Below, in pieces: positions 1 through 29,244 of a stretch of 64,000 nucleotides of DNA. Source of the stretch: Methanobacteriota archaeon (GTDB lineage: Archaea; Thermoplasmatota; E2; JACPAO01; JAHWKR01). The notes under the pieces are model-generated. The model had not been told where the DNA came from. It saw nothing but the letters and a program-made list of their open reading frames with translations, and made no database searches. The position numbers were made by a program, and so were the translations under genes. The stretch covers positions 88,881-152,880 of the forward strand of contig JAHWKR010000001.1 of NCBI GenBank assembly GCA_019347805.1, given 5' to 3'. The stretch's first letter is position 1, and every line of letters starts with the position of its first letter.

Positions 1-63
1 CGGCATACTGAAACCGACGAACGCGAGGCCTACCAGGATCGCGATCAGTGCTTTTGTGTTCAT
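1..63 (-). CDS. N-terminal signal peptide of a third halolysin-like S8 protease paralog, 5' part only, truncated by the window start
   Basis: Minus-strand translation from ATG at 61-63 gives MNTKALIAILVGLAFVGFSMP, nearly identical to the N-termini of the two downstream paralogs; followed by the same conserved leader. Confidence 0.5.
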   Translation of the reverse strand, partial: MNTKALIAILVGLAFVGFSMP

Positions 64-137
64 GTTCGATACCTCCGTTCGATCACGCGACCTGCCTCGC
101 GGTAGGTGCCTTGAAAGACCTCCGGGACGGGCGCACG

Positions 138-199
138 ACCGTTGTCCACTTGGACGAACGGTTAGCTTCTCTGACATGGCATGGCATGTTTAAGCATGC
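138..199 (-). promoter_or_regulatory. Conserved 5' leader element: about 10-bp stem hairpin (138-162) plus CATG-flanked AT-rich core (184-199), upstream of S8 protease paralog
   Basis: Same element repeated at 2489-2545 and 4870-4917 upstream of the other two paralogs; GCATG-N6-CATGC palindrome surrounding TTTAAG (TATA-like on minus strand). Confidence 0.4.
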
Positions 200-635
200 C
201 GATGCTGCAACCGGTTTGTTGGAGGCTGTAAAGGTGCTCGGAGCCGCGGGGACGCAGGGCTCCGAAGGGGTCTGCGAAGGGGAGGTTCCCAGAAGGGAAG
301 GGGATCGCTCCTGATATGCTCGCGTTCGACCGTCGTTCTCGGTGCATGAAGTTGTGTAATCAAAACGATGGGATTAATATGACCACCCATCAAGTGGCGA
401 AGAACGGGGTCGTCGCGACCGACATCGACGGCGACGGCTGGCCGGACCTCTACGCCGCGAACGACTACGACGCCAACGCGCTCTACCTGAACCGGCGCGC
501 CGGCACGTTCCGGGAGGTCGCCTCCTGTCTCATCATGATCGTCATGGCGATGCGGCGCCGTGCGACCGGATCTTAGGGCCCGTAAAAAGCAAGAGGAAAA
601 AGAGGGGGAAGATAGGGGACGGCCGTCAGGCCGCT

Positions 636-2438
636 CTAGACCGTCTCGGTCTCACAGCTGCCGCTTCCGGCGTGGTCCTGGGTGCTGTCCCACGTCAGCG
701 TGTCGTGTGTGAGGGTGTCGACACAGCTGGTGTAGGTACCGCTGCCGATGTTCCTCCAGCGGAACTCGATGAAGCCGCTCGCATCGGTCGTGCCGGAGCC
801 GGTCGCGCAGGAGCCCCCTTCCTGACAGACGGTGACGCTGATCGACGCACCGGAGACACCGTTCTCGGCATCGTCGTACACCCAGAAGTCGATGTAGACG
901 CTCTTGCCTTTCATGTAGTGGTCGATGTCGTGGACGTGCATCGTGCTGCCGCCGCCGCCACCGCCGCTTCCGTCGGAGACGCTGACGGATTGGCTGCTGC
1001 TGTCGGTCGCACCGCCGTCATCGGTCACCGTGAGGGTCACCGTGTAGGTGCCGCCTGCTCCGTAGGTGTGGCTGACGGTCGCGCCGCTTCCGGTCGTGCC
1101 GTCGCCGAAGTCCCACGCGTAGGACGAGATGGTCCCGTCGGAGTCCGAGCTGCCGGAGCCGTCGAAGTTGCACGAAAGGTCGGTGCAGGTGTATGTGAAG
1201 CTCGCGGTCGGCGGGCTGTTGGTGCCGCCACCGCCTCCGCTGCCACCGACGAAGGCGCCGGTGTTGAGGCGGCCGCCGCCTTGGCGGTCCGCGGAGAGGC
1301 CGATGTCGTCGGCCGTGCTCGTCACGGCGCTCTCGATCGTGCTGAACGCGGCGTCGCCGTTGGCGGCGATGTAGAGACCGATGGCACCCGACACGTGCGG
1401 GGTCGCCATGCTGGTGCCCGACATCAGCTGATAACCGGTCGTCGTCCCGCCGTCCACCGAGAGCACGTCCGTCCCCGGCGCGATGACATCGACCTCGGGT
1501 CCTTCGCTGGACCGGGTGTCGAAGTTGTCGTTGGAGTCGGACATCGTCACGATGACGACCTTGTCGCCGTTCTCCGCCCAGGGGGAACTGACACAGTTCG
1601 TGCAGGAACCGCTGTTGCCGGCTGCGGCAACATGGATGACACCCTTGTTGTGGGCGTAGGCGATCGCGTCATCATAGGCCGTGCCGCTTCCGCCGCCCCA
1701 GCTGTTGCTGGAGATGTGGGCACCGACGTCGCCCATGTCAGCCAGTGCCTGGGCGATCGCGGAGGTCCCGGCGGAGCCACAGCCGAAGATCCCGGAGTCG
1801 AAGATCTTGTGCATGATGATGCTCGACTGGCTCATGCCGGCGACACCGACGCCATTGTCGGTGGTGGCGGCGGCCGTGCCGGCGGTGTGGGAACCGTGGT
1901 AGCTGCAACCGCTGTGGTCCTCGAGCGAGCTGTCGCCGTTCGAGTAGTCCCAGCCGCTTACGCGCGAGTTCACGAAATCCTCGTGGTCGGTGGTGATCCC
2001 GGAGTCGAGAAGACCGAGTTTGACCGAGGTGGAGCCGAGGGTGACGTCCCAGGCGGCCTCCGTGTTCGTAATCTGCGGCCCGTACATGTCGGCGTAGCGG
2101 GCGTCGTTGGGCACATAGTTGAGGTGCTGGTCGAACCGCTCTTCCTCGATGTAGCGCACGCGGTCGTCGAGCGTACCGCGCGTTTGGAGCATCGTCGGGT
2201 TGTTCGTCTCGACGACGAAGAAGTTCAGGGACTCACTCACCTTGGATACGGGTTCGCCGCCGTATTGCGAGCGGTCGTCCGGGAGTTCGTAGAAGCCGAC
2301 GATGTACGGCTGTTTCTCTGTCTGCGGATCCGTGGGGTCTACGGCTCCCGTCGGCATGCTGAAGCCGACGAACGCGAGGCAGACCAGGATCGCGAGTATT
2401 GCCTTGTTGTTCATGTTCGATACCTCCGTTCCGGTCAT
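636..2438 (-). CDS. Secreted subtilisin-like serine protease (S8, halolysin-like) with PKD domain and C-terminal beta-sandwich domain
   Basis: Signal peptide [17 protein letters not shown]; catalytic motifs [11 protein letters not shown] and [12 protein letters not shown]; PKD-like FTYTC...YAWDFGDG segment; SD ggaggt upstream. Confidence 0.85.
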   Translation of the reverse strand: MTGTEVSNMNNKAILAILVCLAFVGFSMPTGAVDPTDPQTEKQPYIVGFYELPDDRSQYGGEPVSKVSESLNFFVVETNNPTMLQTRGTLDDRVRYIEEERFDQHLNYVPNDARYADMYGPQITNTEAAWDVTLGSTSVKLGLLDSGITTDHEDFVNSRVSGWDYSNGDSSLEDHSGCSYHGSHTAGTAAATTDNGVGVAGMSQSSIIMHKIFDSGIFGCGSAGTSAIAQALADMGDVGAHISSNSWGGGSGTAYDDAIAYAHNKGVIHVAAAGNSGSCTNCVSSPWAENGDKVVIVTMSDSNDNFDTRSSEGPEVDVIAPGTDVLSVDGGTTTGYQLMSGTSMATPHVSGAIGLYIAANGDAAFSTIESAVTSTADDIGLSADRQGGGRLNTGAFVGGSGGGGGTNSPPTASFTYTCTDLSCNFDGSGSSDSDGTISSYAWDFGDGTTGSGATVSHTYGAGGTYTVTLTVTDDGGATDSSSQSVSVSDGSGGGGGGSTMHVHDIDHYMKGKSVYIDFWVYDDAENGVSGASISVTVCQEGGSCATGSGTTDASGFIEFRWRNIGSGTYTSCVDTLTHDTLTWDSTQDHAGSGSCETETV

Positions 2439-2488
2439 CCGACCTTCCTCACGGTAGGGCCTGAAGAGACCTCCGTGGGAGACGCACG

Positions 2489-2545
2489 ACCGTTGTCCGT
2501 CAGGATGAACGGTTACCGCTGGCGACGCGCCATGTCATGTATAGG
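2489..2545 (-). promoter_or_regulatory. Conserved leader hairpin plus TATA-like element upstream of S8 protease 636-2438
   Basis: gaccgttgtcc...ggatgaacggt stem conserved with 138-162 and 4870-4894; ctatacatga on minus strand about 105 nt upstream of ATG. Confidence 0.4.
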
Positions 2546-2827
2546 CATACCGAGGCTGCAACCGTTCGGTTGCAGGCTGGCGAGGCGGCCCACAGTGGAT
2601 GGGCGCAGGCTCCCGAGGGGCGGGACGAAAAGGGAATCCCCTGGAGTAGGGGGGCCGTCGTCTTGGGGCGCGGTCGGTGCTCCGTCTCCTCGCGCACATG
2701 GTCATCTGTGTGCAATATGGTGTAATGAAACCGAATCAGTTATTGGCGACCACCCACGGAGTGGAAAAGAACAGGACTTGGGGTGGAAAAGGAAAGAGAA
2801 GGGAAAAAGCGGGTCGGGTCCGTGGAT

Positions 2828-4783
2828 CTAGGACCCCGTCACGACTATGTTGTCGACATACCAGCCGGCGAAGTCGTTGCTGAGGCCGTCGACGGAGTCG
2901 AAGTGGTAACGAACCTTGAGGTTCGCTGTGCCGAACGAGGACACGTCGATGGACTCATGGAGCCATCCCGCAGGGTTGTCGTCGCGGGCGTCCTTGTAGA
3001 GCACCGTGCTCCAGGAAGCGCCGCCGTCGGACGAGACCTGGACGCTCATCTTGTCGTAGGCGCCGTTGTAGGACTCGGTCTGCCAGTAGTGGTCGAACTC
3101 GAGGGTCACGGTGCCGAAGGCGCTCGCGTCGACGGTCGGGGTCGCGGCCCAGCCGACGGCGGTCCCGACATCGTAGTCACAATTCGGTGCGGCACGGCTG
3201 AAGGCGATCTGGTAGATGCCACCCGCGGGTGTCACGCAGTCGGACGAGAGCCGCCAAAGGTCGTTGCTGCCGCTGCTCTTGGTGTAGCCGTTCGCCGCGC
3301 CGTCCTCGAAGTCCTCCGAGTGGAGGGACGAGCTGGTACCGCTGGAGACGGTCACGCTCTTGCTGTCGCTGTCGGTCGCACCGCCGTCGTCGGTCACCGT
3401 GAGCGTCACGGTGTAGGTGCCGCCCGCGGCGTAGGTGTGGCTGACGGTCGCGCCGCTTCCGGTCGTGCCGTCGCCGAAGTCCCACGCGTAGGACGAGATG
3501 GTGCCGTCGGTGTCGGTGCTGCCGGAGCCGTCGAAGCTGCACGCAAGGTCGTTGCAACCTGCCGTGAAGCTCGCGGTCGGGGGACTGTTGGTGCCGCCAC
3601 CGCCGCCACCGCCGCCGACGAAGTTGCCCGTGTTCAGGCGACCGGCGCCCTGGCGGTCCGCGGAGAGGCCGATGTCGTCGGCGCTGCTCTTGAGGGCACC
3701 TTCGATGGTGCTGAACGAGGCGTCACCGTTCGCGGCGACATAGAGACCGACCGCACCGGCGACATGCGGGGTCGCCATACTCGTGCCGGAGAGCTGTTTG
3801 TAGCCGGTGGTGGTCCCGCCGTCGACCGACAGGATGTTGCTGCCGGGCGCGATGATGTCCGCCTCCGGCCCTTGGCTGGAGAAGCTGCTGAAGCTGTCTG
3901 TGGAGGTGGACGAGGTCACGATGACCACCTTGTTGGCGTTCTCCTTCCAGGGCGAGCTGATGCAATTCGTGCAGGAGCCGTCGTTCCCGGCGGCGGCGAC
4001 ATGGATGACGCCCTTGTTGTGGGCGTAGGTGATGCCGTCGCTGAGCGCGGTGGACGAGCCCCCGCCCCACGAGTTGGAACTGATATGGGCGCCCTTGTCC
4101 CCCATGTCGGCGAGGGCGTCGGCGATGGCGCTCGTCGTGGCGCCGCCGCAGCCGAAGATGCCGCTGTGGAAGATCTTGTGCATGATGATGCTCGACTGGC
4201 TCATACCGGCCACACCGACACCGTTGTCGGTCGTGGCGGCGGCCGTACCGGCGGTGTGGGTGCCATGGTAGCTGCAGCCGCTGTGGTCCTCGATGGAACT
4301 GTCGCCGTTCTTGTAGTCCCAGCCGCTCACGCGCGAGTTGACGAAGTCCTCGTGCGCGATCGTGATGCCGGAGTCGAGAAGACCGAGCTTGACCGAGGTG
4401 GAGCCGAGGGTGACGTCCCAGGCCGCTTCGGTGTTGGTGATCTGGGGTCCGTACATGTCGCCGTAGCGGGCGTCGCTGGGGACGTAGTTGAGGTGCCAGT
4501 CGGTGTGGTCCTTCTCGATGTAGCGCACGCGCTCGTCGAGGGTGCCCCGGATCTCGAGAAGGGTCGGGTTCTTGGTCTCGACGACGAAGAAGCTGAGCCG
4601 CTCGTTCACGCTTTTCACCGGGTCGCCGCCATATTGTCGCCGGTCTTCGGGGAGTTCGTAGAAGCCGACGATGTACGGCTGTTTCTCTGTCAACGGATCC
4701 AGGGGATCGGCCGCGCCTGTCGGGATGGTGACGCCGACGAATGCGAGGCAGACCAGGATCGCGATCATTGCCTTGTGGTTCAT
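2828..4783 (-). CDS. Secreted subtilisin-like serine protease (S8) paralog with PKD domain and a different C-terminal domain
   Basis: About 75 percent identical N-terminal and catalytic region to 636-2438 ([23 protein letters not shown]); C-terminal about 200 aa unrelated to the paralog. Confidence 0.85.
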
Positions 4784-4869
4784 GTTCTATACCTCCGTTC
4801 TGGCCGCTTGACCTTCCTCACGGTGGGGCTTTGGAGGACCCTCCGTGGGCAGACGCACGACCGTTGTCC

Positions 4870-4917
4870 AGATGGACGAACGGTTAGACCCGGCGCAAGA
4901 GCATGCCATGTTTAGCC
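4870..4917 (-). promoter_or_regulatory. Conserved leader hairpin plus CATG palindrome/TATA-like element upstream of S8 protease 2828-4783
   Basis: gaccgttgtccagatggacgaacggt hairpin; gcatgccatgtttagccatgcc. Confidence 0.4.
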
Positions 4918-5424
4918 ATGCCGGGGTGGCAGTCGGACGGGTGCATCGGCGGAATATGGCAACCCTTGACCACCCCGGTAGGCGATCTTTGGAGTGGTCG
5001 GCACGTGCCCGGTGCCTCTTGTAGTGGGGAGGGGCGGGCCGTGGCCGTGTCGACACACCGACCAGCGCCATGCGCTATGTGAACAATCTGCACAGACTTG
5101 GCGGTAGGGGGACAGCCACCTCCAGGAGTGGGGGTGGGCGTGGGCGGCCGCCGACGCGGGCTCGGGAGAGGGCCGTCGAGGTGCGCGTGGGGCGTGGTCG
5201 ACCGCCCCTCCGAGACCGAGGGAAAGCCGTGGCGCCCGCACCTCGTCTTCGACCCATCTTGCGGACCTGTATCACGAAGAGTGGAACCTGAAAAACAGAA
5301 GGGAACCGGCCGTTGCGGTGGGTAACGTATATATGCGGGCGTGGCAAACGCTTAGATAGCGCCTGCCGGGTCCCCGCGCTGTCCGACGGGGGACGTTTCC
5401 ACCGGCGGGCGAGCAGGTCGTAGC

Positions 5425-6381
5425 ATGGATTGGGAAGCGCTCAAGCTCGAGGTCCGCCAGCTCCTTGACGAGAAGGATGCGGTCCTCATGGTGCACAACT
5501 ATCAACGCCCCGAGATCCAAGACGTCGCCGACGAGCTCGGTGACTCCCTTGCGCTCTGCCAGAAGGCCCAACAGGTCGACCGCGACCGCATCGTGTTCTG
5601 TGGCGTCGACTTCATGGCCGAGGCGGCCAAGATCCTCAATCCCTCCAAGGTGGTGCACCACCCCGACCTCGACTCGGTCTGTCCCATGGCGCACATGGTC
5701 GACACCGAGGGCCTCAAGATGCTGCAGGAGCAGAAGCCTGACGCGGTCACCGTCTCCTACATCAACACCTCCTCGGAAGTGAAAGCCCTCACCGACATCT
5801 GCTGCACGAGCGCCAACGCCGTCGATGTCGTCCGTGCGACCGGCGCCTCGGAGATCATCTTCACACCCGACACCAATCTCGGCATGTGGATCAAGCGGAA
5901 GCTCCCCGAGGTCGAGATGCATTTCTGGCCGGGCTATTGTCCGACCCATATGCTCATCACGGTGCCCATCCTGAAACAGATGCGCGCCGAGCACCCCGAG
6001 GCGGAGATCCTCGCCCACCCCGAATGCACCCCCGATGTCATCGACTTCAGCGACGGTTGCTTCTCGACCGAGGGCATGATCAAGTACGCGGCGCGCAGCC
6101 CCGCCAAGGAGTTCATCGTCGCGAGCGAACGCGACATGGCCTACCGGTTGCACCTCGCGCACCCCGAGAAGACCTTCCACCCGGTCTCCATCGCGGTCTG
6201 CCCCAACATGAAGAAGATCACGCTCCAGAAGGTGCGCGATTCGCTCAAGCACGACAAGGGCATCGTCGAGCTCGACGAGGACCTCATGGACGCCGCCCGC
6301 CGCCCGCTCGAGAAGATGGTCGCGATCGGCCGCTCCTCGTTCGACTCCGGGCCGCAAGAGATCGCCGCCCAGGTCGCCTGA
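5425..6381 (+). CDS. nadA: Quinolinate synthase
   Basis: 318 aa; N-terminus MDWEALKLEVRQLLDEKDAVLMVHNYQRPEIQDVAD and three-repeat architecture typical of NadA. Confidence 0.85.
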   Translation: MDWEALKLEVRQLLDEKDAVLMVHNYQRPEIQDVADELGDSLALCQKAQQVDRDRIVFCGVDFMAEAAKILNPSKVVHHPDLDSVCPMAHMVDTEGLKMLQEQKPDAVTVSYINTSSEVKALTDICCTSANAVDVVRATGASEIIFTPDTNLGMWIKRKLPEVEMHFWPGYCPTHMLITVPILKQMRAEHPEAEILAHPECTPDVIDFSDGCFSTEGMIKYAARSPAKEFIVASERDMAYRLHLAHPEKTFHPVSIAVCPNMKKITLQKVRDSLKHDKGIVELDEDLMDAARRPLEKMVAIGRSSFDSGPQEIAAQVA

Positions 6382-6437
6382 GGGTCACCTCGGAGACCCA
6401 AATCTTCATCCGGCCGGACGGGGTCTTGGAGCATGGA

Positions 6438-6869
6438 ATGTCCGACGTGTCGGTCGCCCGGACGGAACACGGCTACCAGGTCGCCCCCGAGACCCAGGTC
6501 CCGGCCGGCATCCGTCTGCGCGACAAGGCGCGCGTCCTCCTCGGCCACGATGTCACCGTCGACGGTGGCGTCTTCCTCGCCGGCACGCTCCACACGCAGC
6601 CCCGCGTCAAGATCGGCGGCCCCGTCCGCTGCTTCGGAGATGTGCTCATCGGCCCCGGTTCCGAGGTCCATGGCGGCATCGAATCCGGCGGCGCCGTCCG
6701 GATCCTCCCCGACGCCAAGGTCTACGGCCACATCACCGCCGTGACCGATGTCCACCTGCACGACGGCTGCAAGGTCGCCGGAGCGGTCGTCACCACAGGC
6801 GACATCGTGGTCCACGGGGAGGCGGAGACCGGAGATCTCAGGCCCGAGGGGCGGGTAAGGAGCGAATAG
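6438..6869 (+). CDS. Bactofilin-like (DUF583) beta-helical polymer-forming protein
   Basis: Repetitive beta-helix pattern VLLGHDVTVDGGVFLAGTL...VKIGGPVRCFGDVLIGPGSEVHGGIESGGAVRI...; ATG at 6438 in frame with ORF 5886-6869; upstream part of that ORF overlaps nadA and is not coding. Confidence 0.55.
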   Translation: MSDVSVARTEHGYQVAPETQVPAGIRLRDKARVLLGHDVTVDGGVFLAGTLHTQPRVKIGGPVRCFGDVLIGPGSEVHGGIESGGAVRILPDAKVYGHITAVTDVHLHDGCKVAGAVVTTGDIVVHGEAETGDLRPEGRVRSE

Positions 6870-6909
6870 GTCGAAGGATCGACCGGAAAACCTAACCCGT
6901 CGCCATGGT

Positions 6910-8325
6910 ATGACGCCCCGGTCGCCTATGCTCCGTGGTCCCGTCTTCGCGATGTTCGTCCTTCTCGCCCTCTTCGCCTCGGGCCTCGTCGGCGCACCGG
7001 ACGCTTCCGGCCATGGCGGGGGCTTCTCCATCCCGACGCCCCATGAAGGGATGCGCATCGCGATGGACGGGGAGAACATGACCTTCCAGGCTCCCCAGTC
7101 TCGCTGGGTCGGCCACATGGAGCGACGCGAGACCGTCCTCCTGGATGTCGATGGGAAAGGCGCGTTCGGATATCTTTTCGACATGGAGACGAACCGTCAC
7201 ATCGCGCACGGTCATGCCTCGGCCTGGTCGGACGCCAGCGAGCCACCCCTTCCGTTCATCGGGGACCTGGGTCTCTGGGACGCGGAGTTCTCCTATGAAG
7301 GACACCGCGTCCTGGGGATCCATTCCGTCAAGTCCTCCGTTCCCGAGTGGACGCTGTGGGCGAGATGGCTCCGCGCGGGGATGGACCAGACGATCCCGAT
7401 GGACCCGATCCTCGAGGTCCCCCGCTCGGTCCGCCTCACGACCGCCGACACGTTGCGTGACGGCGGGCTCGATGTCGTCGTGCGCGACGAGATCGTCCTG
7501 CCCAACGGTGTCATGAGGATCGACTGGTCGTTCTGGGTCGACGGTACGTCGCCCTTCGGGGAGGAGCGCATGCGTGCCTATTCGTTCCATTTCACGAACG
7601 GGACCGTCGCCGGGCCCTTCTCCGACCCCGTGCCGATCCAGGTCTTGGACACAGGCGGACGTCCCTTGGTGTTCGGAGCGCAGGTCGATCTGCGTTTCAC
7701 CGCCGACCGCGACCGATCCTATACGTATGGTACGATGGGACTCGTCCCGTTCGACCCGGAACCGCATGCCGTCTACGACATCGGTGAGGCGGCGGTCCTC
7801 GCGTTGGCGCTGGATGACGAGGATGTGCGCGTCTTCCTGTCGCAGTCGGAGGATCCGGTCCTCGCCCGCGCGTCCGCCTATGCCGCCACGACGCTCCCGC
7901 TCGACGGACGGTCACAAGGTGTCGTGCATCGCGTCACGTGGGGGCTGGACTTCCGCGACGCGTCGGGCGCCGCGCTCGAGGTGGAGGTGAAGGGCGTGAA
8001 GGTCGCCGGCGCGCCCCTCGTGGTCTATGGCACCACGACCGAACGGGAGCTTGCGAACGGGACGTCGGCCCTCCGTGCCCGCGAGGGCCTGGAGACAGCG
8101 GCGTTCGGCGACGCACTGCGCCGGGTCGAGACGGCGTTCGCCGGCACGGGTGACGATGTCTACTTCGTCCGATGGTCGCTTCACATGGCCGATGTGGGAC
8201 GGTTGCCGCTTCTCGAGGTGCGGACGCTTTCCCACGACGCTCCGCTCCAGCCGGGCGCCGCTTCTTCCTGGGTCGGTCTCGACCTCGGCCGAGGTGTGGT
8301 CTGGGAAGCGGGCCGATATGGATGA
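6910..8325 (+). CDS. Secreted hypothetical protein
   Basis: N-terminal signal peptide PVFAMFVLLALFASGLVGAPDASG; no recognised catalytic motif. Confidence 0.6.
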   Translation: MTPRSPMLRGPVFAMFVLLALFASGLVGAPDASGHGGGFSIPTPHEGMRIAMDGENMTFQAPQSRWVGHMERRETVLLDVDGKGAFGYLFDMETNRHIAHGHASAWSDASEPPLPFIGDLGLWDAEFSYEGHRVLGIHSVKSSVPEWTLWARWLRAGMDQTIPMDPILEVPRSVRLTTADTLRDGGLDVVVRDEIVLPNGVMRIDWSFWVDGTSPFGEERMRAYSFHFTNGTVAGPFSDPVPIQVLDTGGRPLVFGAQVDLRFTADRDRSYTYGTMGLVPFDPEPHAVYDIGEAAVLALALDDEDVRVFLSQSEDPVLARASAYAATTLPLDGRSQGVVHRVTWGLDFRDASGAALEVEVKGVKVAGAPLVVYGTTTERELANGTSALRAREGLETAAFGDALRRVETAFAGTGDDVYFVRWSLHMADVGRLPLLEVRTLSHDAPLQPGAASSWVGLDLGRGVVWEAGRYG

Positions 8326-8373
8326 GCCGGTCCGGCCAAACCTTGATGAACGCCGCCCGGTCTCGCCCGCCCC

Positions 8374-10410
8374 GTGCCCATCTCCCTGGAGCTCAAGGAC
8401 CGTGCCGCGGCGGGCCGCATCTGTCGCCTCGAGACCCCCCACGGCACTGTCACCACGCCGACGCTCCTGCCGGTGTTGAACCCGAACATCCAGCTCATCT
8501 CGGCGAAGGAGATGCGGCGGCTTTTCGGCGCCGAGATGGTCATCACGAATTCCTACGTCATCCGCAAGCATGACGACCTGAGGACGCACGCGCTCGAAAA
8601 GGGTGTCCACTCGCTCATCGATTGGGACGGCCCGGTGATGACCGATTCTGGGACGTTCCAGCAATACGTCTATGGCGACGTCGAGGTCGCCCCCGATGAG
8701 ATCGTCCGTTTCCAGCGCGACATCGGTGTCGACGTCGGCACCATCCTGGATGTCTTCAGCACGCCGGAGCGATCCTATGAGGAGGCACGGGAGGACCTCG
8801 AAGAGACGGTGCGACGCGCAGAACTCTCGGTCGCCGAGAAGGGCGACATGGCGCTCGCCACCACCGTCCAAGGCGGGGTCTATCCCATTCTCAGGGAAGA
8901 GGCGGCGCGCGCCGTCACCCCGTTCGGTGACCTCTTCCCGATCGGTGGGGTCGTGCCGCTCATGGAGCGTCAGCGCTACGCCGACCTCGTGCGCGTCATC
9001 GTCGGTGCCAAGGAAGGGCTCCCCGCAGGGAAACCGGTGCACTTGTTCGGCTGTGGCCATCCCATGGTCTTCCCGCTCGCCGCCGCACTCGGTTGCGACC
9101 TTTTCGACAGCAGCGCCTACGCCAAGTACGCCCGTGACGGCCGCATGATCTTCGCCGACGGCACGCGGATGCTCGCCGAGATGGAGGAATCGGAATGCCT
9201 CTGTCCGGTCTGCCAGACGACGCCGATGGCGGAGCTCAAGCGCCTCGCCGAGCCGCAGCGCATGCGTCTGCTTGCCGAGCACAACCTGCATGTCAGTTTC
9301 GCCGAGTTGCGCCGCGTCCGGCAATCGATCCGCGAGGGCACGCTCTGGGAACTGGTCGAGCAGCGCGCGACCGCCCATCCGTCGCTCCAGGACGCCATGA
9401 AGGTGCTGCAGGAGGAACCGATGAAGCAGTGGCTCGAGCGCCATGAGCCCATCTCGGGCTCGCGCGCCTATCGCTGGACCGGTCCCCATTCGGCGCACCG
9501 GCCGCTCCTGCATCGCCTGCACCGGAGGCTGCAGACGCGTTACCAGCCGCCGCCGGACGTCGAGACCACCGTGGTCCTCACCGAGGGCCGCCGGCCGTTC
9601 AGCGCGGGGCACCGTGAGCGCATCAAAGACCATCTGTCGCGTCGTGCGGCCCATTTCATCGTCGATTCCTATCTCGGTCCGGTCCCCATCGAGTTGGACC
9701 ATGTCTATCCGTTCGCGCAGAGCATCGTCCCGGACGTCCTCGACCCGGGGTCGCTCACGACCGCGCGTTCCGTCCTGTCGCTCTTCCTTGACGAGGTGGT
9801 GCGCACCCAGGTGCTCGCCGATGGCGACGAGTTGGAGGATTGGACCTTCCACACGGCGGAGGACCTCTATGCCGACCCTGGCCTGGTGCTCCAGCACGAC
9901 AAGAAGGAAGGGCCGGGGATCGAGGCGTGGGACCTGGATCGGTTGCGCATGCGCGCGACCGCCGACCTGCAGTTCGGGCGCGGTGCCGCCAAGGTCCTCC
10001 TCGGGCCGTGGGAAGGGATGGAGGCGCGCGTCAGGTTCCACCGCTCGAAGCGGCTCGACAAGGTCCGCAACGTCCAGGTCGAGGGTGACCATGTCCTTTC
10101 GTTGCGTGCCGCGGACGGCTGGTTCAGCCTCACAGCGGACGGCGCGCGCCGCCTCCATGCCGGGTTCCAGACGCCGAAGCTGCGGGTCGTCGTCCAGGCG
10201 GAGAGCGCGACGTTCAACGCCGAGGGCAAGAACGTCATGGCGCCGTTCGTCATGGACATGGACCCGGAGCTCAGACCAGGCGACGATTGTCTCGTCGTCG
10301 ACCCGGACGACCGCTTGGTCGCCCATGGCCGGGTCATCCTTGCGCCGCACGAGGTCGGTGGCTTCCAGCGTGGCCTCGCCGTGCGCGTCCGTGAAGGTCT
10401 TGGGACCTAG
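8374..10410 (+). CDS. tgtA: Archaeosine tRNA-guanine transglycosylase with C-terminal PUA domain
   Basis: 678 aa; GTG start; N-terminus PISLELKDRAAAGRICRLETPHGTVTTPTLLPVLNPN typical of TGT; zinc site CLCPVC; long C-terminal extension characteristic of archaeal TgtA. Confidence 0.85.
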   Translation: MPISLELKDRAAAGRICRLETPHGTVTTPTLLPVLNPNIQLISAKEMRRLFGAEMVITNSYVIRKHDDLRTHALEKGVHSLIDWDGPVMTDSGTFQQYVYGDVEVAPDEIVRFQRDIGVDVGTILDVFSTPERSYEEAREDLEETVRRAELSVAEKGDMALATTVQGGVYPILREEAARAVTPFGDLFPIGGVVPLMERQRYADLVRVIVGAKEGLPAGKPVHLFGCGHPMVFPLAAALGCDLFDSSAYAKYARDGRMIFADGTRMLAEMEESECLCPVCQTTPMAELKRLAEPQRMRLLAEHNLHVSFAELRRVRQSIREGTLWELVEQRATAHPSLQDAMKVLQEEPMKQWLERHEPISGSRAYRWTGPHSAHRPLLHRLHRRLQTRYQPPPDVETTVVLTEGRRPFSAGHRERIKDHLSRRAAHFIVDSYLGPVPIELDHVYPFAQSIVPDVLDPGSLTTARSVLSLFLDEVVRTQVLADGDELEDWTFHTAEDLYADPGLVLQHDKKEGPGIEAWDLDRLRMRATADLQFGRGAAKVLLGPWEGMEARVRFHRSKRLDKVRNVQVEGDHVLSLRAADGWFSLTADGARRLHAGFQTPKLRVVVQAESATFNAEGKNVMAPFVMDMDPELRPGDDCLVVDPDDRLVAHGRVILAPHEVGGFQRGLAVRVREGLGT

Positions 10411-13067
10411 GGTCGCGACAGGGGCGGGACGGCCTCGGGCAACAGGAACCTGTGGCCGAACCCGATCTGTTCCCAGATGCTCCAGGGGGTCTGTTCGGTC
10501 TCGTCCTGGAAGCGCGCCGTGCCGTTCCACTGACCGACCGGGAGCGCGCCGATGGCGTTCGGGAACATGTGGACCTCGACCTCGCCGGTCTCTCCGGGGG
10601 CGATCGTCTGCCACTCCCGGTGCGTGCGGTACCAGCTGGAACTCCATGGTTCTTCGCTGCGCATGGCGACGTCGACCCGGAACGCCTTGCCGGGATGCCA
10701 GTCGCCTTCCCAGGTCACGGTGCCGATGTTCGTCACCCCGATGATCCATTCCGCTTCTCCGCCTTGGGTCGGCGGGAAGAGAAGAGCCAGGGGATCGCCG
10801 CTCGGGCCGCGCACGATGGAGAGCCGCAGGTCGGCATAGTTGACGTAGAGGCCGTCGATGGCGAACAGATCGACACCGTCGCTCCGCCGCAAGTGCAAGC
10901 CGAGTCCGCGGCCTTCGAAGTCGGAGGGGATCGTGACGATCAGCCGGGTGCCGTTCGCTTCGGTCTGGCTCGGCAGGTCGCGCCAGTGGCCGTCGTCTGT
11001 GGTGGAGACGGTGACGTTGCGGTCGGGGTCCCACGGGACGGCGCCGAGGCCGGTGCCTGTGTACACGACGGTCCCGTTCGTCGTCGTGTGCACCGGACCG
11101 TCAATGTGGACGTCGAGCGGGTCGGTGACGTGGAACGCTTCTGTCCAGGTCACCTCCATGTCGTCGCTGCGCGTGACGCTGAGCGGATAGGTGCCGTAGC
11201 CGATGTCGGGGACGAGGAATTCGAGCCAGCTTCCCGGGTCGTCCCATGCGGTGGCGTTCACCGTCGCGTTCCCGATCGTCACTCGGGGGACATGGAGCGT
11301 GGTGTTCCCCACAAGGTCCTCGCCGTAGACGGTGATCGTGTCGCCGGGCAGTCCGGTGACGGGGGAGACCGACGAGATGCGCGGCATGTCGTGCCAGTCG
11401 AACCAAGGCAGGCCGAGGTGGTCGGCGACGGTCTGGGTGTCGATCTTCTTGTCGCGGATGCTCCAGGCGACCGTGTCGAGATGTTCGGGGTGGAGGGCCG
11501 AGGCGGCATGGAAAACGCTCTCCATGTAGGTGCGCGAATCGCCGGTGCCGGCCGGCATGAGTTCGTTCGCCTCGAGGTAGAGGCGCAGGGTGATGTCGCG
11601 GTCGGTGGCGAGGGTGAGGTTCCAGGCGACGCCTGAAATGACCTGGCCGGCGTAGTGACAGCAGCGGTCCATGACATCAGGGAATGTGAGGTCGTTGTCG
11701 AGGCGGCGGAAGCAGTTCGGGACGCCATCGTCCTGGTCGTCGTCGATGTAGGAGCCGAACCAGTCTCCGAGGCACGGCACATCATAGCCGTCGTTCGCCT
11801 CGAGAAGCGCGAGCGCGGAGAAGAGGTCGGCGAAGCCTTCGGCGATCATGCTGCGGTCGCGTTCGGAGAGTTCATTGCCGGTGACGGCGAGTTGCAGCGC
11901 GTGGCCGTATTCGTGCACGACGACGTCGGCGTCCTCGGCGGCGTCGGCGAGGCCGTTCGGTGCATCGGCGTGATAGCCGAAGCGGATGTAGTCGTCCCAC
12001 GAGTAATAGGCGTTGAACATGCCCATGGCGGGTTCCTTGACCTCTTGCGCTTCGGCGTTGTGGTCGGTGAAACCGAGGCGCTGGACGAGGTCTTGCGCGC
12101 GGTCCATGTGGTAGTAGGACATGACGTCCTCGAACCGGATGTCGCTGCGAGGATAGGTGAAGTCGGCGGTCGTGCTGTCCGTGGAGGTGTTGACGAAGAC
12201 CCAGCGGCCTTTCAATGTGTAGGCGCCGGTGAGGGGGGTGTCGAGCCGTTCCAGGGTGGCGTTGTCGATGGTGCTTCCGATGAGGGCGTTCTCGACGCCG
12301 TTCGGGTCGTCCTTGAGGTCCGGGTCGCCAAGGCGCACAAGCGGGCTCGGGTCGAAGATGCGGCCGGCGCCGTTCGCGGCCTCCCAACGCGGCGTGGCGC
12401 TGTCGCGCGCAGGATCGTCCGGGTGGACCCGCACGAGCCAGCCCGCCTCGGTCGGCCCGTGGGTGCCGCGGACGACCGCCTCCCAGGCTTCGAGCCACTT
12501 TTCGTCGTGGATGCGCCAGATGCGGGTGGGTGCGTCATCCATGGTGAGCGGCCCGGCGAAGGCGGGGTGCGCATCCCAGCCGGTCGTCTGTTCGTCACGA
12601 TCGCGCACGGTGTCAACGAAGACGGCGTCGTTGGGACGCACGCTCTGCCAAGAGGCTGGGAAGGTGTCGGGGAGGGCGACGTGGGCGAGCCAGGGGGTCC
12701 CGGTGGCGTCGTGGTGGATGGCGGCGCTCGCGCCGCCGACGGGGATGCCGTCGTGCGCCGCCAGGTAGCGGACGTGCATGCCGGTGGGGCTTTCGCGGAT
12801 GTCCCGTGGGACGAGCAGCGACGCCATGGCGGGGTCCTTCCCGTCTTCCCGGAGGATGACGCGCACCGTGTCGAGGGCCGTCTCGTGTGGCCGGGCGGGG
12901 TCGTAGCGCGGCAGGCCGGTGGCGTCGAGGACACGGGTGAACACCCCTTTGTCCCCCGCGAGCACCGGGCCGGCTTCCACGGCCTGGCCCGGGAAGAGGG
13001 CGAGCAGTGGGACGGTCAACAGGCAGGCGACGGCGAGGGTACGGAGGCGATTCACGCGGGACACCAC
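10407..13067 (-). CDS. Secreted zinc metalloprotease, gluzincin (M4/thermolysin-like fold) with C-terminal Ig-like domains
   Basis: Signal peptide; HEXXH motif VVHEYGHALQ followed by AEGFADLFSA (third-ligand Glu, thermolysin-like NEAxSD context); 886 aa. Confidence 0.65.
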   Translation of the reverse strand: MVSRVNRLRTLAVACLLTVPLLALFPGQAVEAGPVLAGDKGVFTRVLDATGLPRYDPARPHETALDTVRVILREDGKDPAMASLLVPRDIRESPTGMHVRYLAAHDGIPVGGASAAIHHDATGTPWLAHVALPDTFPASWQSVRPNDAVFVDTVRDRDEQTTGWDAHPAFAGPLTMDDAPTRIWRIHDEKWLEAWEAVVRGTHGPTEAGWLVRVHPDDPARDSATPRWEAANGAGRIFDPSPLVRLGDPDLKDDPNGVENALIGSTIDNATLERLDTPLTGAYTLKGRWVFVNTSTDSTTADFTYPRSDIRFEDVMSYYHMDRAQDLVQRLGFTDHNAEAQEVKEPAMGMFNAYYSWDDYIRFGYHADAPNGLADAAEDADVVVHEYGHALQLAVTGNELSERDRSMIAEGFADLFSALALLEANDGYDVPCLGDWFGSYIDDDQDDGVPNCFRRLDNDLTFPDVMDRCCHYAGQVISGVAWNLTLATDRDITLRLYLEANELMPAGTGDSRTYMESVFHAASALHPEHLDTVAWSIRDKKIDTQTVADHLGLPWFDWHDMPRISSVSPVTGLPGDTITVYGEDLVGNTTLHVPRVTIGNATVNATAWDDPGSWLEFLVPDIGYGTYPLSVTRSDDMEVTWTEAFHVTDPLDVHIDGPVHTTTNGTVVYTGTGLGAVPWDPDRNVTVSTTDDGHWRDLPSQTEANGTRLIVTIPSDFEGRGLGLHLRRSDGVDLFAIDGLYVNYADLRLSIVRGPSGDPLALLFPPTQGGEAEWIIGVTNIGTVTWEGDWHPGKAFRVDVAMRSEEPWSSSWYRTHREWQTIAPGETGEVEVHMFPNAIGALPVGQWNGTARFQDETEQTPWSIWEQIGFGHRFLLPEAVPPLSRP

Positions 13068-17805: not shown

Positions 17806-18975
17806 CTAATCACGCCGCCGGCTTCGGGCAACGGCGACCACCGCCACCAGGGCACCGACCGCGAGGAACGCACCGGGTGCGGGCACCTGTCTGGCGGGGG
17901 CCGGAAGCCGTTTGGGTGTTTTCGTCGTGTCGTCCCCGAGGACGCTCTCGTCGGCGAAGGTGACCGTGTAGGTCTCGTTCGAGACGAGGGGGGTCTCGAT
18001 GGGGTGGAGGCCGTGGTCGCGCGCAAGCAGGTAGCTGTCGTGCTCGACCGCCTCGACGCGGAACGTGACGTTGTCGTCGCCACCTTGGACCAGTTCCTTG
18101 AAACGCTCGTGGGTCGCTTCGACCACCCAGGTGTCGTCGTCGCGGTCGCGCTCCATGATGATGGCTGCGGAGCCGTCGGTGGGGGCAAGGCGCACATGCC
18201 AAAGGTCGAACCCTTCGGGCCGGTCCTCGGTGATGCGCACGATGACGCGGTTGGTGTCGCGGGTGAAGCGGCCGCCGTCGTCCAGTTGCACCTCGATGAC
18301 GTCATCGGCGACCCGCAAGGTGCGGGTCTCGGTGCTTTCGCGACCGCGGCTGTCGGCGACGGTCGCGGTGATGGTGTACTCACCGGCCTCAGGGGGTGTG
18401 AAGGTGAGGCCCCAGTGGCTTTCATGCTCCGGGTCATGCCATAGATCCGGAACCCCCAGATCGGTACCACCTGGCCCGGTGACGCGGAACTCGAGCGAGT
18501 CGGGGACGACCTTCAGGTTGTCGATGGCGAAGACGGTGATGTTCACAGGTGCGCCCGCTTCCTGCAGGTCGGGGGTGATGTGGAGGCCGACATCAGGGTC
18601 GACGCCGTCGTAGAGGGGCGGGTTGGTGAAGAAGATGAAGAACGCCAACCAGGAGAAGAAGTAGAGGAACCCGGTGCCGGTCCAGTCTTTCTTGCCGAAG
18701 TGGCTGACATCCACCTTGAGGGCGGGATAGATGTAGCGCAGGAGGTAGCCGAGGACCGCGCCGATCAAGAGGGCCAGGAACCAGCCGCGCTCGGTCGCCC
18801 CGATGGCGAGCCAGACGCCGAACGAGACGGCGGCGGTGACGATGGAGTAGAGGAACAGGATGAGGGTGGTGCGGAAGCTGATGGTCTCGCGGCGGATGTA
18901 TTCGCTCTCGTCGAACTCGGGGACCTCGAAGGGCATCTCCGCCTTCTTGTCGTCCTCGCGCCTGCGCCGTGCCAT
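17806..18975 (-). CDS. Membrane protein with extracellular Ig-like domains and PGF-CTERM-like C-terminal anchor
   Basis: N-terminal TM helices; C-terminus PAPGAFLAVGALVAVVAVARSRRRD (Pro-Gly-Ala-Phe, then TM, then Arg cluster). Confidence 0.55.
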   Translation of the reverse strand: MARRRREDDKKAEMPFEVPEFDESEYIRRETISFRTTLILFLYSIVTAAVSFGVWLAIGATERGWFLALLIGAVLGYLLRYIYPALKVDVSHFGKKDWTGTGFLYFFSWLAFFIFFTNPPLYDGVDPDVGLHITPDLQEAGAPVNITVFAIDNLKVVPDSLEFRVTGPGGTDLGVPDLWHDPEHESHWGLTFTPPEAGEYTITATVADSRGRESTETRTLRVADDVIEVQLDDGGRFTRDTNRVIVRITEDRPEGFDLWHVRLAPTDGSAAIIMERDRDDDTWVVEATHERFKELVQGGDDNVTFRVEAVEHDSYLLARDHGLHPIETPLVSNETYTVTFADESVLGDDTTKTPKRLPAPARQVPAPGAFLAVGALVAVVAVARSRRRD

Positions 18976-28038: not shown

Positions 28039-29244
28039 CTACTTGTTCGCCTTCTCCCATTTGCGGAACTGCCTGAGGTTCTCCATGACGGAGACGCCGT
28101 CCTGGTAGTCGGGGAAGTTCTCCTTGAGCCAGTCGAGGCTGGTCTCGGACAGCGTCCGGTTGTCAAGGTACTCGCGGAACAGGTCGTCGCTCGTGAGCTG
28201 GACCTGGCCGGTCTCGCCGTCGGCGAAGACGTGCCCGGCGGCGTAGTAGCGCTTCGGGTCGTTCCGGGCGCCGCTTCCGCGTGAGACGAGGCTTTCGACC
28301 TTGCCCTTGTTGATGAGCGTCGAGACGTAGGAGGGCGCCTTGCCGATGGCTTCGGCGATCTCCTGGATGGTGACGCCGGGGTTGGCCTCGATGACCTCGC
28401 GCACCTGGTCGGAGACGCTCGGGCCGCGGTCCTTGCGGCGGAACTGTTCCTCGATCTCGCGCTCGGCCTGGGCGATGCGTTTCTGTTCGACCTGGCGCCG
28501 GAGCCCTTCGTAGGTGAACCAGCGCTTCGGGTCGCCGCGCACGCCGCGGCCGCGCGATTGGACGCCGGGGATGCCCTCTTTGAGGAGTTTGGAGATGTAG
28601 GGGACGTGGTTCTCGAGCCGGTCGGCGATATCCTTCGCCGTGAGCCCGGGTTCCTTGGTGACGACCGCCTTGATCTTCTCGGGGATCTCGGGGTCGGGAC
28701 CGCGTGTCGATTTGCGGCGCGCCTCGGTGCGCAGGATGGCCGCGCGTTTCGGTTCGTCGATGGCCGCCTGCTCCTCTTCCGTCTTGGCCGGTTCGAGGTG
28801 GTCGGAGACCGGGGCGAGCTCGGGGCGGTAGTTCACGGGGTAGAGCCGGATGTCCTTGCGGCGGGTCGCGCCGCGGCCCATGCGGACGCCCGGGATCTTG
28901 CCGTTCTCGACGTCGTTGTAGATGGATTGGTAGGAGGCGGAGACCTTGAGGCCCAGTTTGGACAGGGTGATGCCGGGCTCGGAGGTGACCAGTTCCTGGA
29001 TCTTTTGCCGGCGTAGGTCGGCGCCGTAGCGGGCGCGGTGGGGTTTCTTGCGGAGGTAGATCCTGAAACTCTTGCCGCGCGCCTTGACCTTCTTGAACGT
29101 GTCTTCGTTCTGGTCGATGGTCGCCTCCACCTTGTCCGGGTCGAGGTCGAGCGCGGTCGCGATGTTCGCGATCGTCGTGCCAGGGTTCTCCAACACATGC
29201 CGTTGGACCTGACGTTTCAGGGATGAGTCAAGGATCTGTTCCAT
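28039..29244 (-). CDS. DNA-binding protein composed of four tandem winged-helix (wHTH) repeats
   Basis: Four repeats of the pattern xIxxxVxxxPGxTxxxIAxxL...Y(V/I)SxLIxxGK(V/I)xxxxSRGxGxRxDPKRY(Y/F), seen directly in the translation. Confidence 0.6.
   Translation of the reverse strand: MEQILDSSLKRQVQRHVLENPGTTIANIATALDLDPDKVEATIDQNEDTFKKVKARGKSFRIYLRKKPHRARYGADLRRQKIQELVTSEPGITLSKLGLKVSASYQSIYNDVENGKIPGVRMGRGATRRKDIRLYPVNYRPELAPVSDHLEPAKTEEEQAAIDEPKRAAILRTEARRKSTRGPDPEIPEKIKAVVTKEPGLTAKDIADRLENHVPYISKLLKEGIPGVQSRGRGVRGDPKRWFTYEGLRRQVEQKRIAQAEREIEEQFRRKDRGPSVSDQVREVIEANPGVTIQEIAEAIGKAPSYVSTLINKGKVESLVSRGSGARNDPKRYYAAGHVFADGETGQVQLTSDDLFREYLDNRTLSETSLDWLKENFPDYQDGVSVMENLRQFRKWEKANK

Follow-up and report, generated by a model that had tools for sequence, protein, structure and literature searches.

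A candidate promoter-leader module in front of three tandem subtilase genes of a Thermoplasmatota-like archaeon

Non-coding blocks upstream of three tandem subtilase genes are conserved far above the neighbouring, presumably neutral sites, and a palindrome in this region is common to homologous genes elsewhere. With moderate confidence, each gene is read as its own transcription unit with a homologous promoter-leader module consisting of the palindrome, a BRE/TATA core, a spacer, an initiator-like TA|A and a leader. In the proposed arrangement, a dyad site TGCAACC-N4-GGTTGCA, centred ~50 bp before the predicted start, would most likely be bound by a transcription factor beside the BRE/TATA core (CTWAAC between CATG flanks), and a spacer of exactly 23 nt, its sequence apparently unconstrained, would lead to the TA|A. 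The ~100-nt 5' leader would open with a 10-bp hairpin, continue with a Shine-Dalgarno (SD)-like CGGAGGT paired to an anti-SD CCTACCG, and close with a strong GGAGGT 7 nt before the ATG. Its role may be to shield the 5' end from 5'-to-3' decay and/or to modulate access to the SD. As it stands, this is an ordinary instance of paralogues retaining a cis-regulatory region, with no new RNA class. Thermoplasmatota are thought to be important protein degraders in saline and marine settings; to our knowledge, almost nothing is known of gene regulation in the uncultured members.

The protease array and the conservation of its upstream regions

Three protease genes encoding S8 and PKD domains lie in tandem on the minus strand of the window, the whole 64,000-nucleotide stretch of DNA analysed, with start codons at 63, 2414 and 4783. 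The genes and the tracts behind them are:

1..63, minus strand: protease gene A, of which the window includes just the first 21 codons (MNTKALIAILVGLAFVGFSMP...), the rest lying beyond its left edge
583..635, minus strand: T/pyrimidine-rich tract immediately behind the stop codon of gene B (cccctatcttccccctctttttcctcttgcttttt), resembling an archaeal oligo-T terminator
636..2414, minus strand: protease gene B, 592 aa, with signal peptide, propeptide, S8 catalytic domain, PKD domain and a short C-terminal domain
2770..2827, minus strand: T/pyrimidine-rich tract behind the stop codon of gene C, putatively terminator-like
2828..4783, minus strand: protease gene C, 651 aa, S8 and PKD, with a longer C-terminal domain unlike that of B

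Read as a terminator, the tract after gene B would place A and B in separate transcription units, and comparable tracts are found behind the upstream gene in L012, L013, L014 and L015. Genes B and C are ~76% identical in nucleotides and 73% in amino acids with unrelated C-termini, in agreement with the ~75% coding identity and different C-terminal domains described in an earlier, sequence-only reading of this DNA. That reading placed the starts at 63, 2438 and 4783. The first and the last are correct, but gene B starts at 2414, since this ATG is the homologue of the other two and follows an SD at a distance of 7 nt. The ATG at 2438 was rejected as a start, as was a coding function of the leader: the position lies within the leader, and the frame is broken by an indel in copy A and by a TAG in copy C, indicating that the leader region is non-coding.

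Protein C is identical to an NCBI protein from a metagenome-assembled genome (MAG), 'S8 family serine peptidase [Euryarchaeota archaeon]'. The proteases match Pfam Peptidase_S8, and in the PDB they come closest to Ak.1 protease and thermitase (E 1e-40 to 1e-42). The earlier description as halolysin-like is appropriate at the level of the thermitase-like S8A catalytic domain, which is present. It does not extend to the signal peptide, as the protease N-termini contain no RR motif of a twin-arginine (Tat) signal, or to the host, which is archaeal and Thermoplasmatota-like and not a haloarchaeon. The nearest named relatives are Thermoplasmatales/Thermoplasmatota MAGs. A search of genome contigs with protein C returned only distant bacterial subtilases (33-66% local identity), and a search of metagenome contigs with the subfamily protein alignment returned only relatives of at most 42% identity, of no use for leader comparison.

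The ribosome-binding block and the 5' hairpin are present in all three copies, confirming that the same block is retained upstream of each paralog. The related claim, that the non-coding element is conserved to a similar degree as the coding regions, holds for the leader as a whole (75-81% pairwise identity). However, the conservation is patchy: 28 of 29 columns are invariant in the hairpin arms and 3' flank vs. 1 of 19 in the adjacent spacer and loop (Fisher p = 5e-11). Identity in the spacer is 27-45%, and the four-fold synonymous sites of B and C are 62% identical. The control region is clearly under purifying selection.

Alternatively, the similarity could be no more than what a recent tandem duplication or gene conversion has left behind, the non-coding DNA being unconstrained. 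The genes are indeed lineage-specific tandem duplicates, the pro and catalytic domains of B and C being 81% identical to each other and only 77-78% identical to the nearest outgroup, L010a; the PKD segment shows a raised synonymous identity between B and C of 87.5%, suggesting some conversion in the array. However, conversion should also have homogenised the spacer and the loop, and the leader is far more similar than the spacer or the four-fold sites. Moreover, B and C cannot be aligned upstream of about -165. Patchy conservation together with the divergence at synonymous sites shows that a recent duplication is no explanation, and the non-uniformity of the divergence contradicts the recent uniform duplication that the sequence-only reading had set against its own proposal. 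This alternative is already disfavoured and is considered extremely improbable.

Core promoter and upstream palindrome

The promoter features of the three copies are:

165..187, minus strand: copy A, 23-nt spacer from the TATA hexamer to TA|A
175..200, minus strand: copy A, core promoter block CGGCATGC-TTAAAC-ATGCCATGCCATG, with the TATA-like hexamer at 188-193 and CATG on both sides
206..223, unstranded: copy A, palindrome with one half degenerate (minus strand: TCCAACAAACCGGTTGCA), with a 12-nt gap to the TATA hexamer downstream
2539..2544, minus strand: copy B, TATA-like hexamer CTATAC, with the 23-nt spacer at 2516-2538 and TA|A at 2515/2514
2557..2574, unstranded: copy B, palindrome without mismatch between its halves (TGCAACCGAACGGTTGCA), with a 12-nt gap to the TATA hexamer downstream
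4910..4915, minus strand: copy C, TATA-like hexamer CTAAAC, with the spacer at 4887-4909 and the CATG-flanked block at 4901-4922
4927..4945, unstranded: copy C, strongly degenerate palindrome remnant (TGCACCCGTCCGACTGCCA)

Each gene has a single AT-rich box upstream, with none closer to the ATG. In an archaeal core promoter, such a box is expected ~24-31 nt before the transcription start at fixed spacing. The spacing of the box agrees with that of the boxes of the window's own leaderless genes, in which the AT-rich 8-mer begins 28-37 nt before the start; this would place +1 at or just before the hairpin, and transcription is predicted to start at TA|A. The TATA block is invariant in 16 of 21 columns. 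The spacer is exactly 23 nt long in all three copies, and its sequence is invariant in 1 of the 15 tested columns (A2 61-75, which hold 22 of the 23 spacer positions plus 7 adjoining CATG-block positions).

The AT-rich box flanked by CATG was correctly located at 184-199 and 4901-4922 by the sequence-only reading. Its 'CATG palindrome' is best interpreted as the BRE/TATA-flanking portion of the core promoter. Across the window, CATG is no rare word: it occurs 395 times vs. 443 expected on trinucleotide composition, with 5 triple clusters vs. 4.4 expected by chance. A special status of the cluster, such as restriction-site avoidance, was rejected because both frequency and clustering are at chance level.

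The palindrome TGCAACC-N4-GGTTGCA was overlooked in that reading; it is the one element conserved across genomes. With at most two mismatches, it has 5 matches in 136 kb vs. 0.33 expected, each of which precedes an S8 gene (winA, winB, L010a, L011 and L014a), and a sixth match, at L012, has three mismatches. At every matched locus it lies 11-15 nt before the AT box. At least three other lineages carry it before protease genes that are homologous, and likely orthologous; it is absent in the related lineages L013b, L016, L098 and L099. In L010 and L011, a GCAACC half-site also precedes the conserved neighbouring gene. Three further matches in the window (49368, 53547 and 59194) have three mismatches and unrelated genes nearby, and were treated as chance. 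The degeneracy of the palindrome in copy C and its absence from those related lineages are observations against the module.

Recurrence before homologous protease genes in other lineages suggests that the palindrome is probably a transcription-factor site. Ptr2 sites of Methanocaldococcus and the GvpE-responsive element of Halobacterium are dyads or repeats just upstream of BRE/TATA that recruit TBP/TFB. The present palindrome is likewise a dyad element in this position, differing in motif and being a candidate site for either activation or repression. In the sptA halolysin promoter of Natrinema sp. J7-2, expression needs semi-palindromes directly upstream of the TATA box, and further elements lie near the start (Li et al. 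2018, PMC6085418). The present palindrome shows the dyad symmetry, the TATA-adjacent position and the recurrence at orthologous promoters of an sptA-type semi-palindrome, and both systems precede an archaeal secreted subtilase. However, the sptA sequences described there (GAAAT-N7-ATTTC and TTCTT-N10-AAGAA) are unrelated to TGCAACC-N4-GGTTGCA, the sptA host is haloarchaeal, and the function of the sptA elements was established by mutagenesis, whereas here it is deduced from sequence comparison. The excerpted text of PMC6085418 does not mention a long SD-led leader or a 5' hairpin. A cross-genome palindrome before secreted proteases provides a concrete candidate operator, and thus a handle on the regulator and its regulon. 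Candidate regulators among the HTH proteins of this lineage include an AsnC-type HTH protein of L014 (1025-1966) and an HTH_24/MarR protein at 28039-29244 of the window.

The 5' hairpin as RNA or DNA element

The hairpins at the predicted 5' end are:

132..164, minus strand: copy A, TA|A, 10-bp hairpin with a bulged C (138-162) and invariant 3' flank CGTGCG (132-137); predicted start A163
2489..2513, minus strand: copy B, ACCGTTCATCCtgacGGACAACGGT, with a G-to-A change and hence an A.C mismatch in the sense RNA
4860..4884, minus strand: copy C, ACCGTTCGTCCatctGGACAACGGT

Exactly three copies of the pattern ACCGTTC(G/A)TCC-N4-GGACAACGGT are present in the 64 kb, vs. 0.01 expected. The sites at 138-162 and 2489-2513 are those given earlier, and the third lies at 4860-4884 rather than at 4870-4894. 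Nine of the ten pairs of helix 1 never vary and one is broken: the sole stem substitution (G to A, in copy B) disrupts the pair in the sense RNA and would leave a G.U wobble on the antisense strand. The loop varies freely (AAGT/TGAC/ATCT). The 'co-varying loop' of the sequence-only reading is therefore a loop that merely varies, as no stem pair covaries. The predicted stabilities of -10 to -13.5 kcal/mol are equalled by 4/40, 24/40 and 15/40 shuffles for the three copies. At seven homologous promoters of other lineages, strong hairpins start 16-26 nt past the AT box, at a strength that 0-1 of 40 shuffles reach. The hairpin itself is absent from the closest homologous leaders, and its exact pattern has no match in metagenome contigs; the search for the element beyond the three copies, in the 64-kb window, the homologous leaders and the metagenome contigs, thus found none. 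A terminator was rejected, as no T-run follows the hairpin and it is sited downstream of the TATA box; so was a dispersed repeat or mobile element, as only three copies exist. Periodic ACGG/CCGT boxes were likewise dismissed as a transcription-factor array because their spacing is not regular.

The conservation starts exactly at the predicted +1, suggesting that the hairpin and the leader act within the transcript. The strict sequence invariance of the dyad is also compatible with a protein-binding DNA site, an observation against the module. Several archaeal repressors block recruitment of RNA polymerase, and a dimeric repressor could do so by binding the dyad ACCGTT...AACGGT (or GTCC-N4-GGAC) that spans the start, the RNA hairpin being incidental. 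The invariant arms around a free 4-nt centre are the classic signature of two half-sites and a spacer, and the dyad lies at +2 to +26 from the predicted start, a position typical of archaeal operators. Further, the neutral sites are nearly saturated, yet no compensatory changes are seen, one change breaks the RNA pairing, and the hairpin is no stabler than chance. In sptA, negative action is ascribed to a semi-palindrome beside the WW motif, which belongs to the core promoter (PMC6085418). Evidence against a repressor site is the abrupt onset of conservation at the predicted +1, followed by six further invariant bases (CGTGCG) only 3' of the dyad and by conservation that runs on across the ~100-nt leader including complementary segments. 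One arm has an extra C, which makes the dyad asymmetric, and the site is found neither elsewhere in the 64 kb nor at homologous promoters, whereas the upstream palindrome is cross-genome. Action as a DNA operator is rated as rather unlikely.

Leader and ribosome-binding block

The leader features are:

71..76, minus strand: copy A, Shine-Dalgarno GGAGGT, 7 nt before the ATG, within the invariant block GAACGGAGGTATCGAAC
100..124, minus strand: copy A, predicted central leader hairpin of SD-like CGGAGGT (118-124) and complementary anti-SD CCTACCG (100-106)
2422..2427, minus strand: copy B, Shine-Dalgarno GGAGGT
4791..4796, minus strand: copy C, Shine-Dalgarno GGAGGT

The ribosome-binding block GAACGGAGGTAT(C/A)GAACATG is present in all three copies, and the SD block is invariant in 16 of 18 columns. 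The predicted untranslated leader of ~100 nt is unusually long. In about a dozen other genes of the window, an AT-rich box precedes the start codon by 23-37 nt, as is usual for leaderless genes, and most other window genes look leaderless. Together with the classification of 11 of 11 Thermoplasmata as leaderless-dominated (PMC6028130), this makes a long SD-led leader atypical for this genome, in line with the earlier remark that archaeal mRNAs are often leaderless. SD-dependent protease mRNAs with leaders, as opposed to the leaderless bulk, suggest extra post-transcriptional control of potentially self-damaging enzymes.

A structured leader RNA as proposed in the sequence-only reading was not borne out. 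The check for covariation on the aligned upstream regions gave no significant signal (304 of 500 shuffles reach the observed score), a comparison of very little power with three sequences. Leader folding energies are not exceptional against dinucleotide shuffles (z -1.36, -2.01 and -1.75), the hairpin has shuffle-like stability, and Rfam 15 gave no match in 1-6000 at E<=1 and, across the whole window at gathering score, a single match, a tRNA.

The 5' arm CCGTTC is complementary both to its own 3' arm and to GAACGG abutting the SD, and in the proposed module it may alternate between these partners. The SD is largely paired in the predicted ensemble of all three copies (mean P(unpaired) 0.16-0.18), and forced folds with the hairpin closed or with the 5' arm paired to GAACGG are 3-4.6 kcal/mol apart. 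The leader contains the true SD along with an SD mimic and an anti-SD, as would suit a ligand- or temperature-sensing riboregulator (a riboswitch or RNA thermometer) with SD-masked and SD-open folds. Such a sensor is nonetheless very unlikely, given the lack of an Rfam family, of covariation and of exceptional folding energy; the leaders of the closest homologues cannot be aligned to the three leaders, and no aptamer-like conserved core common to genomes was found. A dedicated bistable post-transcriptional switch, acquired by secreted subtilase genes in a mostly leaderless lineage and coupled to the TGCAACC-N4-GGTTGCA regulon, is a doubtful extension of the module. In one state, CCGTTC paired to its own 3' arm would give a protected 5' end and an open SD; in the other, it would pair with GAACGG, with the SD mimic and the anti-SD adding a second layer. 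Having several pairing partners to satisfy would account for arms that are frozen in sequence and do not covary.

The module as preferred here can be compared with bacterial leaders. The E. coli ompA mRNA has a 5'-terminal stabiliser stem-loop. In the Bacillus subtilis aprE (subtilisin) leader, an extreme-5' stem-loop with a strong ribosome-binding site is a proposed mRNA-stability determinant (Hambraeus et al. 2002, cited in PMC3997798). The likeness to aprE lies in a leadered protease mRNA with these same two features; both aprE and ompA differ in being bacterial, with other decay machinery, and here the 5' end is predicted and the hairpin is not unusually stable. STAB-SD (cryIIIA) and SD/anti-SD leader hairpins have an SD-like sequence in the leader with no start codon after it. 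The internal SD-like site of copy A is likewise followed by no start codon, and differs in its archaeal host and in its predicted pairing to an anti-SD. Internal GGAGG motifs are also present in the leaders of homologous promoters from other lineages.

Three tandem protease genes

The first 5 kb of the window contain three tandem minus-strand genes encoding secreted subtilases with S8 and PKD domains:

ATG at 63, minus strand: gene A, continuing past the left window end
636-2414, minus strand: gene B, 592 aa
2828-4783, minus strand: gene C, 651 aa

The B and C proteins share 73% identity overall, rising to 81% across the pro and catalytic domains, and have unrelated C-terminal domains. Gene B starts at 2414 and not at 2438, the position given by the sequence-only reading: the ATG at 2414 corresponds by homology to the A and C starts, and GGAGGT stands 7 nt ahead of it. 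The ORF list has an in-frame ATG at 2438, but this one lies inside the leader, and the equivalent frame is indel-shifted in A and closed by TAG in C. The proteases can be called halolysin-like only as members of the same protease subfamily, since the catalytic domain is thermitase-like and the signal peptide lacks a twin arginine. Each stop codon is followed by a T/pyrimidine-rich tract, consistent with the paralogs being independent transcription units. The window is archaeal, encoding an archaeosine-type tRNA-guanine transglycosylase (TGT, C2 and PUA domains) and an EMC6-arch protein; the gene C product matches a MAG protein with the label 'Euryarchaeota archaeon' at 100% identity, and the nearest named relatives are Thermoplasmatales/Thermoplasmatota MAGs.

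The four-fold synonymous identity of B and C reaches 87.5% in a PKD segment (codons 400-450, window about 1000-1250 and 3350-3600) vs. 62% for the whole comparison and 33-58% in parts of the catalytic domain, which points to gene conversion confined to this stretch or to the PKD module having been exchanged more recently. Upstream of gene A, a short plus-strand ORF (316-576) encodes an FG-GAP/VCBS repeat (Pfam FG-GAP_3, E 1e-8) with a hydrophobic, arginine-rich tail. A degenerate remnant of this ORF lies upstream of B (about 2700-2790), with the first ~35 nt and the 5' flank recognisable before a terminator tract, indicating that the ancestral duplication unit took in part of the divergent neighbour gene. 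Further probable surface or secreted proteins are encoded on the minus strand at 10407-13067 (a fragment of an M36-like metallopeptidase carrying an IPT/TIG domain) and 17806-18975 (an EMC6-arch protein with a PKD/filamin-like domain), and the region seems to hold many functions in extracellular protein degradation.

Conserved promoter-leader blocks

The observed conservation is genuine, though for the most part unremarkable: a promoter-leader module under selection has been retained by three diverged paralogues. The regions upstream of A, B and C (copies A-C) can be aligned from the ATG to about -165, and those of A and B beyond, confirming that the same blocks precede all three genes. Three matches to the hairpin motif ACCGTTCNTCC-N4-GGACAACGGT are present in 64 kb, where 0.01 would be expected. 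A pattern search of the window placed the first two sites as previously reported and the third 10 nt away from its reported position:

138-162: hairpin of copy A
2489-2513: hairpin of copy B
4860-4884: hairpin of copy C

Conservation of the upstream regions is strongly patchy, with invariant columns concentrated in the arms and flank relative to the spacer and loop (Fisher p=5e-11).

Columns invariant in the three-copy alignment (A2)
TATA/CATG block: 16/21
15 columns starting at the last CATG-block positions and ending immediately ahead of TA|A: 1/15
TAA, both hairpin arms and GGTCGTGCG: 28/29
Hairpin loop: 0/4
SD-to-start block: 16/18

Four-fold degenerate sites of B and C are just 62% identical at a genome GC3 of about 90%, so that neutral divergence is near saturation. 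The conserved blocks thus reflect selection and not a recent, uniform duplication. Gene conversion is an unlikely source of the conservation, since the spacer and loop would then have been homogenised too.

In all three copies, an AT-rich hexamer (TTAAAC, CTATAC or CTAAAC) is followed by exactly 23 non-conserved nt and then by invariant TAACCG. The leaderless arrangement, in which an AT-rich box starts 23-37 nt ahead of the start codon, is seen at about a dozen other genes of the window. Application of this spacing puts the predicted +1, which could be off by a few nt, at the last A of the TAA (A163, A2514 and A4885), one base ahead of the hairpin. The predicted leader would be about 100 nt long with the hairpin at its 5' end. 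Its 3' part carries a strong SD; it also contains an internal SD-like CGGAGGT, which no start codon follows and which has an in-silico partner, CCTACCG, and a variable segment whose complementarity to invariant GGUCGUG is kept through G.U/G-C/U-A changes. This leadered, SD-dependent architecture is exceptional in a mostly leaderless genome and noteworthy; all 11 Thermoplasmata genomes examined by GeneMarkS-2 were classed as leaderless-dominated (PMC6028130). Many first genes of the window have an AT-rich 8-mer beginning 28-37 nt before the provisional start (e.g. 19735, 22360, 32148, 43555, 46160, 48915, 50528, 58599 and 61956), a promoter layout of the leaderless type, and SD motifs occur mainly at operon-internal genes, e.g. 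in the nuo/Mrp-like cluster at about 33-44 kb.

The CATG-flanked AT-rich core was found where it had been reported. CATG is not depleted in the window (395 vs. 443 expected from trinucleotide counts) and clusters of three occur at chance frequency (5 vs. 4.4 expected); the repeats are best read as part of a conserved BRE/TATA-proximal core and not as a separate element.

The 5' hairpin as a possible RNA or DNA element

The folding results argue only weakly for the leader as a functional RNA. The leader matches no Rfam family, its folding z-scores are -1.4 to -2.0, and the hairpin stability of -10 to -13.5 kcal/mol is reached by 4/40, 24/40 and 15/40 shuffles. The covariation score of the three-copy alignment is reached by 304/500 shuffles, and the structured leader RNA proposed earlier is not borne out. 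Nor is its 'co-varying loop', which is unconstrained; nine of the ten stem pairs never vary, and the tenth is disrupted in B by a G-to-A change, the sole substitution in the stem.

Two strictly invariant arms around a free 4-nt centre would be equally expected if the dyad were the operator of a dimeric DNA-binding protein. Two features speak for the RNA level. Conservation starts exactly at the predicted +1 and runs asymmetrically beyond the dyad and through the leader. The 5' arm CCGTTC can also pair with either of two partners, the 3' arm of the hairpin or the GAACGG next to the SD; alternative leader folds are 3-4.6 kcal/mol apart, and the predicted ensembles of A, B and C all leave the SD mostly paired (P(unpaired) 0.16-0.18). 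Constraint from several pairing partners could have frozen the arm sequence. Action as RNA is on balance rated somewhat likelier than a DNA operator. The hairpin at the predicted 5' end is sequence-frozen, and three copies are too few to decide between the RNA and DNA levels. The folds predicted for A, B and C agree in pairing the true SD with a conserved AUCCU in signal-peptide codons 8-10 (GCGATCCTG, at about +24 to +30 of the coding sequences), which may be a by-product of signal-peptide conservation.

Related genomes and the upstream palindrome

Comparison covered the contigs with the closest homologues (L010-L016 and L097-L099), which were 57-73% identical to C in a protein search; the S8 genes of these contigs likewise tend to stand in tandem. 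Their leaders cannot be aligned with those of the window and none has the hairpin, which is also absent from the metagenome collection; the element is thus specific to this paralogue set. A scan of genome contigs with protein C yielded just distant bacterial subtilases (33-66% local identity), and a metagenome scan with a subfamily protein alignment yielded relatives of at most 42% identity. The homologue promoters have predicted leaders of 46-106 nt behind the AT box, often with an internal GGAGG, and in seven a strong hairpin, reached by 0-1/40 shuffles, starts 16-26 nt past the box. Leader structure may thus follow a common theme even as the sequence turns over.

The clearest cross-genome signal is a palindrome, TGCAACC-N4-GGTTGCA, located 11-15 nt upstream of the AT box and absent from the sequence-only reading. 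It is perfect in copy B (2557-2574), has two mismatches in A and is degenerate in C, and it precedes S8 genes in L010, L011 and L014 (<=2 mismatches) and L012 (3 mismatches). With <=2 mismatches, five matches occur in 136 kb vs. 0.33 expected, all five upstream of S8 genes. A GCAACC half-site also lies ahead of the AT box in L097 and in one S8 promoter of L013 (L013a). The palindrome looks like a transcription-factor site and is a noteworthy candidate regulon operator. The halolysin gene sptA of Natrinema sp. J7-2 is controlled by semi-palindromes next to its TATA box (PMC6085418); they parallel the palindrome in position, but their sequence is unrelated.

A gene for a 352-368 aa secreted or anchored protein without a Pfam family is conserved beside S8 genes in several related genomes and absent beside those of the window:

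L010 1070-2167
L011 1540-2646
L014 4600-5676
L012 3192-4250

In the L010 and L011 promoters of this gene, GCAACC(-N3-CGGTT) stands ahead of a GTTTTCC box. An S15 X-Pro dipeptidyl-peptidase gene, with a leaderless-type AT box CATAAAAG at -31 and without the palindrome, lies about 52 kb from the S8 genes in the window (56827-58599, minus strand) and adjoins the S8 pair in L013 (11601-13385) and L015 (5352-7097). In L016, S8 genes at 4655-6430 and 8093-10078 lie on either side of IS110-family transposase genes (6753-7803). Their pro and catalytic regions are 100% identical, and the pair looks like a very recent, possibly IS-associated duplication.
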